Sequence record: PQ438393.1
Direction: 5' to 3' (one strand)
DNA: 64,000 nucleotides
Source: Escherichia phage vB_Eco_J-01
Of the stretch, positions 9,150 through 60,326 are shown in pieces. A program made the position numbers and the translations under genes. The notes beneath the pieces were generated by a model. The model had not been told where the DNA came from. It worked only from the letters and a program-made list of their open reading frames with translations, and searched no databases. Positions within the stretch are counted from its first letter, which is position 1, and each line of letters opens with the position of its first letter.

Positions 9150-9176
9150 AAAGGGGCGAAAGCCCCTTTATTTTTG
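9150..9176 (+). terminator. intrinsic terminator
   Basis: GGGGCGAAAGCCCC hairpin followed by T run. Confidence 0.7.
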
Positions 9177-9184
9177 GAGGATTT

Positions 9185-9586
9185 ATGACTACAGCACTGG
9201 ATATTCAAATTGATGGTGATCACTACAAACGTATGCGTATGCAACCTTTGGAACTTGCATATCTAATTGGTGCAACTCCTTGTTTCACTAAGTTAGCTAA
9301 GTATGCTTGTCGAAACAAAGGTGATCGTGTGATCAACCTAAACAAAGCGATTCACGTTATTCATATTGAAAAAGAATTGAGTGATAAGTATTACAATATG
9401 TTGTATGAAGCCTACCCTAACTTAAAAAATCCTGTAAAAATTGAGTTAGCTAATCAACTAATTGATTTATATACAGACGATGATCTTGTTCGTAAGGCTT
9501 TAAAAGCAATGTATAAAGGTAAGTATATTGAAGCAGCAGATGCTATTGAACAATTGAAGGAGAGTGTAGATGGCTTCTCACGGTAA
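9185..9586 (+). CDS. hypothetical protein (possibly DUF3310-like)
   Basis: GGAGG RBS; N-terminal GDHYK...MQPLE block; weak assignment. Confidence 0.45.
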   Translation: MTTALDIQIDGDHYKRMRMQPLELAYLIGATPCFTKLAKYACRNKGDRVINLNKAIHVIHIEKELSDKYYNMLYEAYPNLKNPVKIELANQLIDLYTDDDLVRKALKAMYKGKYIEAADAIEQLKESVDGFSR

Positions 9587-9764
9587 ACAATACGGAGAGG
9601 GTGAAGTATATAAAATATACAATAAACGCGGAGATAAACTCCTATATACAATCACAATCCCAGAAAATATGTGTAAGGCTGGTTTAGACCGTATGCTTTT
9701 CTTTAAATATAACATTCCACCTGGAGATTATGTAGCTAAAAAGGTGAGCACTATTGGAAAATAA
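9570..9764 (+). CDS. hypothetical protein
   Basis: ORF track; AAGGAG RBS. Confidence 0.4.
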   Translation: MASHGKQYGEGEVYKIYNKRGDKLLYTITIPENMCKAGLDRMLFFKYNIPPGDYVAKKVSTIGK

Positions 9765-10329
9765 AGAACCTAAAGTTATTTGGGGAGATGGAACACCTTG
9801 GAAAACTCAAGCAGCCTTTTATACATATTTAAGGGGTTGCTTAAGGAAAGCATGGGTGAGACACCCGAATAAGATAAAAAAGATCCAATCTGTACGATTT
9901 AAAGCCGATAGGTTGGATAAAGATGGCAATGTAGTTTTAGATAAGAAAACAGGCAAACCGAAACAGGTTTGGAATTGTAAATGTGAATTGTGTGGACATA
10001 CAGGAGGTATGAAAGACTTTCAAGTAGACCATATTAATGCAGCAGGTACATTAACCTGTTATGAAGATATCCCAAGTTTTGTTTTACGCCTATTGTATGT
10101 AACAGAAGACGACCTGCGTGTAGTTTGTAAGCAGTGTAACGCTATCCTGGCTTATGCTGACAAGCACGATATGACATTCAGGGAAGCAAAAGCGGAGAAA
10201 GAAGCGATAGCTTTATGCCAGTCTAAAAAGGATAAAAATTGGCTGACGAAGCGCGGAATTTCACCAGAAAGTACAATAACTAAGCGAAGAAAACAGATAG
10301 TAAAAATTCTTCTTGACGAAGAGAAATAA
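9754..10329 (+). CDS. HNH endonuclease-like zinc-binding protein
   Basis: CxxCGH...DHI...CxxCN arrangement; TTG start. Confidence 0.4.
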   Translation: MENKEPKVIWGDGTPWKTQAAFYTYLRGCLRKAWVRHPNKIKKIQSVRFKADRLDKDGNVVLDKKTGKPKQVWNCKCELCGHTGGMKDFQVDHINAAGTLTCYEDIPSFVLRLLYVTEDDLRVVCKQCNAILAYADKHDMTFREAKAEKEAIALCQSKKDKNWLTKRGISPESTITKRRKQIVKILLDEEK

Positions 10330-10360
10330 TAAAGTATTATCGCTCCCACAAACGGGAGCG
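10313..10360 (+). promoter_or_regulatory. promoter plus 5' stem-loop upstream of tk
   Basis: TTGACG, 16 nt spacer, TATTAT, then CGCTCCCACAAACGGGAGCG hairpin, then GAGGAG RBS. Confidence 0.45.
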
Positions 10361-10374
10361 TTAGAGGAGAAAAT

Positions 10375-57868: not shown

Positions 57869-57889
57869 ACGCACACCTATAAAAACACG

Positions 57890-58100
57890 AAATTGAACTT
57901 TTCATTTTTGATTTTTCTACGGAAAAAGGCAAAAAAACTTTAAATAAACTGGGGAATTTTTAAAAAATTGAACTTTTCATTTTCAAAATCTGGATAGAAA
58001 TACATACAAAAAACTTTAAATAATTTTGACCAAACTTGAACTTTTCATTTTCAAAATTTGTATCCAAAAATCTGTAAAAACTTTAAATAATTTTGTACTT
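57890..58100. repeat. three tandem direct repeats of about 68 bp
   Basis: Each unit holds TTGAACTTTTCATTTT and AAAACTTTAAATAA blocks. Confidence 0.7.
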
Positions 58101-58308
58101 TTATAAAAATGATTTTACTGTTCTGTTATAAGTAGTAGTTAAGAGATAGTATACCTTTTAAAGATCAGATACCATAGTCCAACAAACAAATTAAATACTT
58201 TATTAACAGAGTACAGAATAATATTTACTCTGGATATATTATTCAGAGGGTGGATTTCCGTACATGAAACCCACACCCCTTTTTATAAAAATAAAAATTT
58301 TCAAAATA

Positions 58309-58860
58309 TCAGGAAATATCAGATTGTGTTTTTAGATAAACAGCAAGGTCTGTATGCCATTTTCCTAAAAGATTTTGTCCTTTCCAACAGTCCTTATTTT
58401 CCACATCACGATCCCACATTCCCATTTTGATACCATAAATAGAATCATAGGGGCTTGCCTCTACGAACTCCTTATCTGCGTAAGCGATAAGTTTATTTTT
58501 GAGATCTTCATTTTGTGTGTATTTAAGATACAAACCACGCTTGACAATCTTCTCCCGTAAAGAAGCCCAGGTATCTTCATCATAATCTTTAACTAATCTG
58601 CCTAGTCGTTTATAATATGCTTGTTCTTTTTCTCCTGTATATCTTAGATCTCCGGTTAAAATAGAAGATGCAATACTGTAATCATAAAACAAACATGCTT
58701 TTCTCCACATCATATATTGTTCCACACAAGTAAATTCAACAGAACTTGTAATAGAATTATTATACTTGGGAGCTAAAGGTTCAATAAAAGATGATAGATA
58801 CCAGTTGCTAAATTCATCTTTTGCCGAGAAGAAGAACACATACTTATCAGTAATCCGCAT
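58309..58860 (-). CDS. NADAR/YbiA-family protein (putative ADP-ribose-processing hydrolase)
   Basis: Blocks FFFSAKDEFSNWY, EQYMMWRKACLF, SIYGIKMG, GQNLLGKWHTDL parallel my recollection of E. coli YbiA. Confidence 0.7.
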   Translation of the reverse strand: MRITDKYVFFFSAKDEFSNWYLSSFIEPLAPKYNNSITSSVEFTCVEQYMMWRKACLFYDYSIASSILTGDLRYTGEKEQAYYKRLGRLVKDYDEDTWASLREKIVKRGLYLKYTQNEDLKNKLIAYADKEFVEASPYDSIYGIKMGMWDRDVENKDCWKGQNLLGKWHTDLAVYLKTQSDIS

Positions 58861-60264
58861 TTACACCTCCTTACTGTATACTAATTTGCCACCATATTGT
58901 GTAATAATTTTTTGAAGATTTTCCAAATCAGAAGCACTTACTGTTTCTGTATGACCATCTTTCAACTCTCTTTCCGTTAAAATACCAGTTTTTAATTTTT
59001 TCTTTATAGCTCTTTCAGCAGCCTTACATTGTTGCACTGTGCTAAAATCATATAAACAAATACGCTCCATAAAAAACATATTACGGCTATTTTGAATGTT
59101 TAATCGCCTATCACTATCTTTAGCTATGCCAAACTTAAGAGCAACTATAATATCATCATCTTTAACAATATTAATATATAATTGCTGTTGACTATGACCA
59201 GCACACTGTGAACACCCACACCCTTGAGTTAATAAGTTACGAGCACTCCCTATCTGCTCCCCATGTACAAGACAAAGATATTTAAACTTACCTATAGAAG
59301 ATGGTTTGGTAATCCAATCTACCCAGACATACCCTTTCTTTTCTATTTCCTTTCTCACTTTGTAGGTAATCTGATTTTCTGTATAATGATAGCTAGTTGC
59401 ACAGCGGCAAGGGATACTTCCTTGTTTAAGATCACTTCCTCTAGAGTAAAATTTACCATCGCAAACACCTGCTTGAACATATTCATCATGGGAGCAAACA
59501 GGACACTCGATCATCCAGATAATATCTCCTGATTTACTACAACTACGTTTCCCTGTATTGGTGAAGATAGTGCCTTCCTTAAATTTCCCTGTAGAAAAGA
59601 AATCTGCAATATGTTGATCGTCGGATATTGTTTTTGCCTTCCTTATATTCTCCCTCCTACATAAAGGACAACCATTGCCATTTTTAAAACTGTTAATACT
59701 TGTAGTATCCCATCTGTTCCCACAATGACACAACAAATCAAGTTTTGTGTAACACCCTTTCCATTTTCCAACGTACCCTAACACCTGATACCCCTTCTTC
59801 TGTGCTATCTCTGCCAAGATCGGTAATTCTGTTTCCCATGTTAACGGCTTCTTACCAGAACAGATAGGACAACCACGTCCATTCCTAAAATCAATAATGT
59901 GCGTGGTGTTCCACTCTCCATGTTTAGGGCAAACTATGCGAATTTTTGTTCGCACACCTCGCCACTCCTCGGCAAGACCTATAAAAGTAAACCCTCTTTC
60001 TTTAGCAATATCAACAAGGGAAATACATTCCTTTTCTTCTGTTACTTTTCTACGACCATTGCAATCGGGGCAACATTTACTGCCTTTAGTTTTAAATTTA
60101 GCGATTGTGGTACTTTCCCACTCTCCATGTTTAGGGCAAGATAGCTTAAGTTTAGTCTTGTGCCCTTTCCATTCACCAACATAACCCAGGATTTGAATAT
60201 TGTGATTTTTAGCAAGGGGTGTTAATTCTTCTTTATATTGTTCCCATGATTTTGGTACTGGCAT
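58861..60264 (-). CDS. protein with triplicated zinc-ribbon module and C-terminal T5orf172-like domain
   Basis: Three repeats of about 75 aa (LGYVGEWKG...CPKHGEW...GCPxC); C-terminal KFGIAKDSDRRL resembles T5orf172/GIY-YIG-like; GAGGAG RBS. Confidence 0.5.
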   Translation of the reverse strand: MPVPKSWEQYKEELTPLAKNHNIQILGYVGEWKGHKTKLKLSCPKHGEWESTTIAKFKTKGSKCCPDCNGRRKVTEEKECISLVDIAKERGFTFIGLAEEWRGVRTKIRIVCPKHGEWNTTHIIDFRNGRGCPICSGKKPLTWETELPILAEIAQKKGYQVLGYVGKWKGCYTKLDLLCHCGNRWDTTSINSFKNGNGCPLCRRENIRKAKTISDDQHIADFFSTGKFKEGTIFTNTGKRSCSKSGDIIWMIECPVCSHDEYVQAGVCDGKFYSRGSDLKQGSIPCRCATSYHYTENQITYKVRKEIEKKGYVWVDWITKPSSIGKFKYLCLVHGEQIGSARNLLTQGCGCSQCAGHSQQQLYINIVKDDDIIVALKFGIAKDSDRRLNIQNSRNMFFMERICLYDFSTVQQCKAAERAIKKKLKTGILTERELKDGHTETVSASDLENLQKIITQYGGKLVYSKEV

Positions 60265-60302
60265 CTATTACTCCTCTTATTAAATCTGGTATTAATACAA
60301 GA

Positions 60303-60326
60303 AAACCCGCCGAAGCGGGTTTTTAT
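60303..60326. terminator. terminator between ATPase gene and zinc-ribbon gene
   Basis: AAACCCGCCGAAGCGGGTTT with T-rich flanks on both strands. Confidence 0.65.

Follow-up and report, generated by a model that had tools for sequence, protein, structure and literature searches.

Repeated tetraloop hairpins downstream of genes in the phi92-like Escherichia phage vB_Eco_J-01: probable Rho-independent terminators or attenuators

Six hairpins, their anatomy and their placement

Two short hairpin sequences, each present three times in a stretch of 64,000 nucleotides of Escherichia phage vB_Eco_J-01 (PQ438393.1; the whole stretch is called the window here), are very probably Rho-independent terminator or attenuator hairpins of a phi92-like coliphage, and their identity does not require recent copying or recombination. 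Each copy may also provide a protective 3' end for its mRNA. They are elements of an already known kind in a known phage, and the repeats are real but unremarkable. The phage belongs to the phi92-like subfamily Stephanstirmvirinae, and the window shares 98-99% identity with published Escherichia phages of this subfamily, among them Eryne (PQ529420) and PaulScherrer (MZ501100). Eryne is the closest complete genome (98.9% identical); its assembled sequence was used for counting loop orientations. The positions of the hairpins relative to genes were taken from the annotation of relatives.

The repeats described in the original prediction proved to be correct base for base: GGGGCGAAAGCCCC occurs on the + strand at 9153, 22241 and 33527, and AAACCCGCCGAAGCGGGTTT occurs, also read on the + strand, at 34266 and 60303, with its reverse complement at 29892. 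Neither sequence had a match in 100 dinucleotide-preserving shuffles. In the case of the second hairpin, the positions stand, but the functional orientation is the reverse of the one first given for two of the three copies (34266 and 60303): read on the gene strand, it is AAACCCGC-UUCG-GCGGGUUU at all three sites, which lie on the + strand at 29892 and on the - strand at 34266 and 60303. The six copies are as follows.

9150-9169, + strand: GAAA hairpin AAAGGGGC-GAAA-GCCCCTTT (copy 9153), 3 nt past the stop codon of the DnaQ-like exonuclease gene 8184-9146; tail ATTTTT, then a ribosome-binding site and an ATG at 9185; folding energy -13.4 kcal/mol
22238-22257, + strand: GAAA hairpin AAAGGGGC-GAAA-GCCCCTTT (copy 22241), between the endolysin gene 21735-22235 and the PhoH-like gene 22274-23026
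33525-33542, + strand: AAGGGGC-GAAA-GCCCCTT hairpin (copy 33527), 3' of the sirtuin gene 32705-33517; tail TTTCTTAT
29892-29911, + strand: AAACCCGC-UUCG-GCGGGTTT hairpin (copy 29892), 3' of the gene 29631-29888
34266-34285, - strand: AAACCCGC-UUCG-GCGGGTTT hairpin (copy 34266), 3' of the - strand gene 34291-34614; tail TCTTGTAT
60302-60323, - strand: AAAACCCGC-UUCG-GCGGGTTTT hairpin (copy 60303), 3' of the - strand ATPase gene 60339-61466 and ahead of the - strand endonuclease-like gene 58861-60264

Read on the gene strand, every copy consists of two to four A residues, five G/C pairs with a C-G closing pair, a tetraloop, two to four T residues and a T-rich tail. The stems are perfect (7-9 bp, five of them G/C pairs), the RNA folding energies range from -12.2 to -13.4 kcal/mol, and the stop codon lies 3-25 nt upstream. 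The loop is GAAA, of the GNRA class, or UUCG, of the UNCG class, the second family being a C(UUCG)G hairpin at all three of its sites. The three GGGGC-GAAA copies follow the exonuclease, endolysin and sirtuin genes in a + strand block of replication and nucleotide-metabolism genes, and the three CCCGC copies follow a small + strand gene (29892), a small - strand gene (34266) and the - strand ATPase gene (60303). Good T tails are present at 9153 (TTTATTTTT), 33527 (TTTTTCTTAT), 29892 (TTTTTTGTT) and at both 34266 and 60303 (TTTTCTTGTAT). The copies show those features of an intrinsic terminator that can be read from sequence, namely a stable G/C stem-loop, a U-rich tract 3' of it, sense placement downstream of a coding region, and a structure that is conserved over sequence. 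The label of terminator hairpins that they had been given fits everything tested, from their position just 3' of stop codons, their G/C stems, GNRA or UNCG loops and T-rich tails to their sense orientation and the conservation of position and structure.

The orientation of the loops bears on the level at which the hairpins act. In Eryne, all seven GAAA and all five UUCG terminator-like loops are in the sense orientation of their genes (12/12; probability 2^-12 if orientation were random), which argues for a role in RNA and not in duplex DNA. The genome of Eryne contains GGGGCGAAAGCCCC five times, two of these beyond the region of the window (3' of a colanic-acid-degradation gene and 5' of the DNA polymerase gene), and the CCCGC-UUCG 20-mer three times.

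The distance between the stem and the following start codon is no more than 15-21 nt at 9153, 22241 and 33527, enough for a ribosome-binding site but not for a promoter; if these three hairpins terminate transcription, they would therefore be leaky. At 29892, a promoter-like TTGACA-17-TAAACT (29916-29944) lies directly 3' of the hairpin, and we regard this site as a terminator-promoter junction for that reason. Judged by their sequence, the copies could work in the following way. The nascent RNA would fold into the hairpin (about -12 to -13 kcal/mol), and the hairpin together with its U-rich tail would release, or partly release, the RNA polymerase. Leaky release at 9153, 22241 and 33527 would set relative expression levels. 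The copies are probably identical because the range of workable designs is very small (two loops and a few stems made of a G-run and a C-run are favoured, and the closing pair is fixed) and because the sites are old and conserved in position.

Orthologous sites, flanks and recurrence of the hairpins

We used flanking proteins (50-88% identical) as anchors to locate the orthologous sites in diverged relatives from IMG/VR. The hairpins keep the same intergenic sites in these relatives but change independently, and the two hairpin families replace each other at orthologous sites. At site 9153, the relatives have GGGGC-GAAA, GGGGC-GGAA, AGAGGGC-UUCG, GGGAGC-UUAUU, GGGGC-UUCG or the exact AAACCCGC-UUCG-GCGGGTTT of the CCCGC family, and compensatory change is seen at four of the eight base pairs. 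Site 22241 has a GGGGC stem with a GUAA, GCAA, UUCG or UUU loop, or lacks the hairpin. The loop at 33527 is GAAA in loci L124, L125 and L026 and UACG in L126. A CCCGC-UUCG hairpin is found in L124 and L126 both in the interval that corresponds to 29892 and at site 34266, where L026 combines the same stem with a loop of 5 nt. Four related loci, one of them diverged, were recovered for site 60303: the loop is UCCG in relatives whose ATPase is 100% identical, and AAGCCCC-GAAA-GGGGCTT is present in the relative at 74%. Most loop substitutions remain within the GNRA or UNCG class.

Concerted evolution of the copies within a genome was considered and rejected on the basis of orthologous sites that lie on the same relative contig. 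On contig 3300014004_000001, for example, three of these sites have GCAA, UACG and UUCG loops, showing that the copies are not homogenised. Such a pattern is the one expected of RNA hairpins that are maintained independently of each other by selection on structure. A recent spread is excluded by the age of the sites, which equals that of the subfamily. The comparative series also shows clearly, in a natural setting, how terminators switch between tetraloop classes and how their stems change by compensation.

The original prediction had taken the exact reuse of the hairpins as a sign of their spread by recombination. This is not supported: identity stops at the hairpin, no breakpoint falls on a copy, the 20-mers are ubiquitous, and the orthologous sites evolve independently. 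Copies of the same family are identical at on average 11.2 of 40 upstream and 12.0 of 40 downstream positions, as compared to 13.0 +/- 3.1 and 12.9 +/- 3.0 for pairs of unrelated terminators. Same-sequence copies are therefore no more alike in their flanks than unrelated terminators are. We found no cassette-wide similarity between copies over 40 nt on each side of the stem-loop, the identity ending at the A/T tracts. No boundary is shared between the flanks, which is the outcome that the prediction itself had named as speaking against its proposal. The best candidate for extended flank homology, the pair 22241/33527 with 19/40 identical positions upstream, was rejected: the match runs across the stop codons, in a different register in each, and the orthologous flanks of relatives do not show it.

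A further claim, that several of the + strand copies are preceded by a shared CTTAACCAA box, was not confirmed, as the box precedes one of the six copies. The 9-mer occurs twice in the window, at 32118 and 33518 (expectation 0.97; two or more occurrences in 28% of shuffles). The occurrence at 33518 is the sole one ahead of a listed copy (33527), and it reads CTTGACCAA in relatives whose flanking protein is 99% identical. The other lies ahead of a different hairpin (32125-32145), within the start region of a sigma70-type promoter (32080-32109). We rejected CTTAACCAA as a shared flanking box because its count of two is at chance level, only one of the listed copies has it, and even very close relatives do not preserve it.

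Colinearity was determined by megablast against Eryne and PaulScherrer. The window is colinear with Eryne over positions 1-42930 except for one indel at 18980-19526, which lies in a gene cluster for dTDP-sugar biosynthesis, and all remaining breaks are located between 42.9 and 60.2 kb. Together, the two comparisons gave breaks at 18980-19526, 42930, 45474, 46485, 47977-47993, 49670-49686, 57815 and 59873-60227. None of these breakpoints coincides with a copy. The one closest to a copy is at 60227, inside a gene and 76 nt away from 60303.

The same 20-mers are also common in other genomes. Matches to AAAGGGGCGAAAGCCCCTTT were found in at least 120 viral contigs, and 5 of the 120 listed loci align with the window past the hairpin and its A/T tracts. 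Among the matches listed, the viral loci have G+C contents of 30-58%, and the hairpin is typically within ~10 nt of a stop codon. AAAGGGGCGAAAGCCCCTTT is also present in at least 120 bacterial contigs, from Gammaproteobacteria, Betaproteobacteria, Bacteroidota, Firmicutes, Spirochaetota and others; by chance, ~1 match would be expected in 596 billion bases. AAACCCGCTTCGGCGGGTTT was likewise found in at least 120 viral contigs. The matches listed represent 104 distinct flank contexts, none of them related to the window, and in nearly all of them the UUCG-oriented hairpin is followed by a T-run.

The size of the design space was sampled with the pattern AAAA-SSSSC-GAAA-GSSSS-TTTT in the viral contigs of IMG/VR, which gave 110 new matches listed (loci L284-L393). 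All 110 are perfectly complementary, and they use 10 of the 16 possible stems. Usage is skewed among the listed matches, with 64 GCCCC stems (~55%), 17 GGGCC, 10 CCCCC and 7 CCCGC, and it follows that two independent GAAA terminators would be identical with a chance of about 1/3. For the seven GAAA terminators of Eryne, ~7 identical pairs are expected, and 10 were observed. Convergence, as opposed to a very ancient duplication, would be the source of the identity. Since the design space is tiny, such strings recur in unrelated viruses and bacteria. This calls for caution: exact repeats of 14-20 nt that consist of G/C stems with GNRA or UNCG loops should not be counted as evidence of recombination. 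The hairpins themselves probably show where transcripts end or are attenuated in a group of coliphages that is well sampled, with more than 130 Stephanstirmvirinae genomes in GenBank, and are of little import beyond annotation.

Known systems and alternative readings

Repeated C(UUCG)G hairpins in the intercistronic regions of T4, and an excess of UUCG and GNRA loops in the terminators of E. coli, have long been known; E. coli terminators with GNRA or UUCG loops were reportedly described in 1990 by d'Aubenton Carafa et al. The copies share with these intrinsic terminators a short G/C stem, a C-G closing pair, a UUCG or GAAA loop and a T-rich tail, as well as their placement just past stop codons, their sense-strand specificity and their many recurrences per phage genome. 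Nothing essential differs, except that this lineage leans more to the GGGGC-GAAA design than a global viral sample does and that several weak-tailed copies would have to be leaky. Tetraloop classes are said to interchange at fixed positions in rRNA (Woese, Winker and Gutell, 1990). The likeness is that the orthologous sites described here switch between GAAA, GGAA, GUAA, GCAA, UUCG, UACG and UCCG while the helix is kept; the difference is that the switching takes place in the terminators of a phage subfamily. A more general resemblance exists to the rV5-like myoviruses, which belong to the same broad group of large coliphages as the phi92-like ones and have, like them, sigma70-type promoters, stem-loop terminators between gene blocks and bidirectional terminators where blocks converge. 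For rV5 itself, 20 rho-independent terminators and 33 promoters have been predicted (PMC3606486). It should be noted that rV5 is a member of another subfamily and that the likeness is one of general layout.

Several observations weigh against the interpretation as terminators whose identity arose without copying. The tail is weak at 22241 (TTTTATAAGG, TATAAGG), for which reason the hairpin at 22238-22257 is probably an attenuator or a 3' stabiliser, and poor U-tracts occur at some sister hairpins too. Copies 34266 and 60303 share eight further tail bases (TCTTGTAT), which extends their identity to 28 bases; one of these two tails reads TCTTGCAT in Eryne. The GGGGC stem is used by five of the seven GAAA terminators of Eryne and by roughly 8% of the global matches listed, a comparison that is only rough given that the global samples consist of at least 120 matches and those listed are in no known order. 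Global preference alone does not explain the GGGGC skew of the lineage, which could reflect a very old duplication or a lineage-specific bias. Finally, we found no transcript 3'-end data for this phage group in the literature, and we infer termination, as well as its efficiency, from the sequence.

The weak U-tracts at 22241, 5570 and 24216 also favour a view in which the hairpins are mainly elements of mRNA stability or processing, that is, barriers to 3' exonucleases that would set differential decay of the segments of a polycistronic transcript. The extra-stable tetraloops are consistent with this, and so is the location of the next ribosome-binding site within 8-15 nt, without a promoter in between, which requires substantial read-through. 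In T4, C(UUCG)G hairpins between cistrons have reportedly been linked to RNA stability as well as to termination (Tuerk et al. in 1988). However, the tails at 9153, 33527, 29892, 34266 and 60303 are good and T-rich, and among the matches listed the UUCG 20-mer of unrelated phages is almost always followed by TTTT, a hallmark of intrinsic terminators. We therefore see a mainly stabilising function as possible, though rather unlikely; roles in stability and in termination are not exclusive. A function at the level of DNA, as palindromic protein-binding sites, cruciforms, nick sites or replication signals, appears extremely improbable. The stems are perfect palindromes in duplex DNA, but they vary by compensatory substitution instead of keeping their sequence, the loop substitutions in relatives are mostly within the RNA-specific GNRA and UNCG classes, and loop orientation is tied to the transcribed strand in 12 of 12 cases, whereas a DNA palindrome would be indifferent to strand.

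It is very improbable, in our view, that the hairpins are mobile or recombinogenic cassettes, multiplied by duplication or gene conversion and serving as sites of homologous recombination at which genes are shuffled, and for recent events this has largely been refuted already. The copies are exactly identical, yet 14-20 nt is very short for homologous recombination, and unrelated viruses and bacteria contain the same 20-mers. Although 34266 and 60303 have 28 nt in common, identity in the flanks is at background level. The preference of the lineage for the GGGGC-GAAA design would fit copying, but the copies are not homogenised in relatives, each site drifts alone, and the sites are of subfamily age, which leaves no place for a recent spread. 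A terminator is directly followed by a promoter at 29892, whereas the other five copies have no associated promoter. Three diverged relatives (L268, L276 and L279) have additional genes inserted exactly where the 9153 terminator lies; these insertions are bordered, however, by different hairpins and not by one repeated hairpin (in L268, CCCGC-UUCG upstream and GGGGC-UUCU downstream), and they are typical of moron-like insertion between genes, not a signature of recombination between identical repeats. The precedent for such shuffling is documented in T4-type phages, whose promoter-early stem-loops (PeSL) are promoter/stem-loop cassettes proposed to mediate modular shuffling (PMC2839356, PMC4122927). 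Breakpoints between the window and its close relatives are concentrated in the early region at 43-60 kb, and none lies on a copy.

The copies resemble PeSL in being probably terminating stem-loops of a G-run and a C-run that are repeated within a phage genome, and a sigma70-type promoter is directly linked to the 29892 copy and another to the hairpin at 32125. They differ in that only one of the six copies has the promoter component of the composite (nothing promoter-like is present at 34266 and 60303), in that they sit in a conserved block of replication and nucleotide-metabolism genes and not in a hyperplastic region, and in that they lie off indel junctions and show no similarity beyond the stem-loop. 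The PeSL model is fitted much better by the - strand promoter-plus-hairpin repeats at 48-57 kb than by the six terminators. An older origin may also be imagined. The GGGGC-tetraloop hairpin holds at least six conserved sites in the Stephanstirmvirinae, and the copies could derive from one ancestral cassette that spread by duplication or recombination in the ancestor of the subfamily. The stem preference would then record this spread and not convergence, and the sites would still serve as preferred landing sites for inserted genes, which the additional genes present at 9153 in three diverged relatives may hint at. We consider this scenario improbable.

Sister hairpins and other elements of the window

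Besides the six copies, the window contains further hairpins of similar build.

5570-5587, + strand: AAGCCCC-UUCG-GGGGCTT terminator-like hairpin of the same design, with turnover in relatives
15543-15561, + strand: AGGGGG-CTTTGTC-CCCCCT hairpin, 3' of the ribonucleotide reductase alpha gene
24216-24235, + strand: AAACCCCC-TCAA-GGGGGTTT hairpin of the same architecture
32125-32145, + strand: AAAGCCCC-AATCA-GGGGCTTT hairpin, 16 nt downstream of a sigma70-type promoter and preceded by CTTAACCAA
33887-33916, both strands: 13-bp bidirectional terminator AAAGCCCCTAGAA-GCGA-TTCTAGGGGCTTT, where the + and - gene blocks converge; -21.1 kcal/mol

These sites also vary in relatives. Site 15543 is occupied there by AAGGGGCGAAAGCCCCTTT (exact in two relatives) or by a GGGGC-UUCG-GCCCC hairpin; exact GGGGCGAAAGCCCC is present at this site in relatives and absent there from the window, which has a different hairpin. 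Site 24216 has GCCCC-UUCG-GGGGC and other hairpins, and the bidirectional terminator at 33887 shows compensatory changes or outright replacement.

The promoter upstream of the 32125 hairpin is a perfect 12/12 sigma70 promoter (TTGACA-18-TATAAT, 32080-32109, + strand) with an extended -10 (TGGTATAAT), located inside the 3' end of the gene 31500-32108. Its extended -10 and the hairpin are conserved in diverged relatives. As the promoter is 16 nt ahead of it, the hairpin would be both a terminator of the upstream transcript and the 5' end of the new one. A second combination of this kind is found on the + strand at 12511-12569, upstream of the gene 12591-13001, where promoter-like TTGACT-17-TAGTAT is followed by the hairpin AGGAGAGC-TAT-GCTCTCCT. 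All relatives retain both parts, and the stem changes in a compensatory manner (GGGAGAGC, GGGGGAG, GAGAGGGA and GGGAGGAG), which suggests a conserved 5'-leader stem-loop.

The - strand of the region 47900-57200 contains ~20 near-consensus sigma70 promoters (TTGACA-16/17-TAnnnT), each with a G/C hairpin ~10-30 nt further on, ahead of small open reading frames (ORFs). The hairpin GGCGGGAAA-TGG-TTTCCCGCC is present on this strand at 48818, 50189, 50555, 52864 and 53744, and variants of it are found at 53430, 54163, 55995 and 56802. The breaks of colinearity with Eryne and PaulScherrer cluster in this region, and the overlapping alignment ends at 47977-47993 and 49670-49686 coincide with promoter repeats.

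An Rfam scan of the whole window gave no match at gathering score. This includes the interval 45846-47309, ~1.4 kb without an ORF of at least 60 amino acids, in which, hence, no tRNA was detected by that scan; only very short hypothetical genes are annotated there in relatives. On the - strand (58309-61466), a restriction-modification-like or defence-like module is made up of the ATPase gene upstream of copy 60303 (60339-61466), the endonuclease-like gene (58861-60264) and a gene for a DNA methyltransferase (58309-58860); in it, the start of the endonuclease-like gene (59873-60227) has been replaced relative to Eryne.

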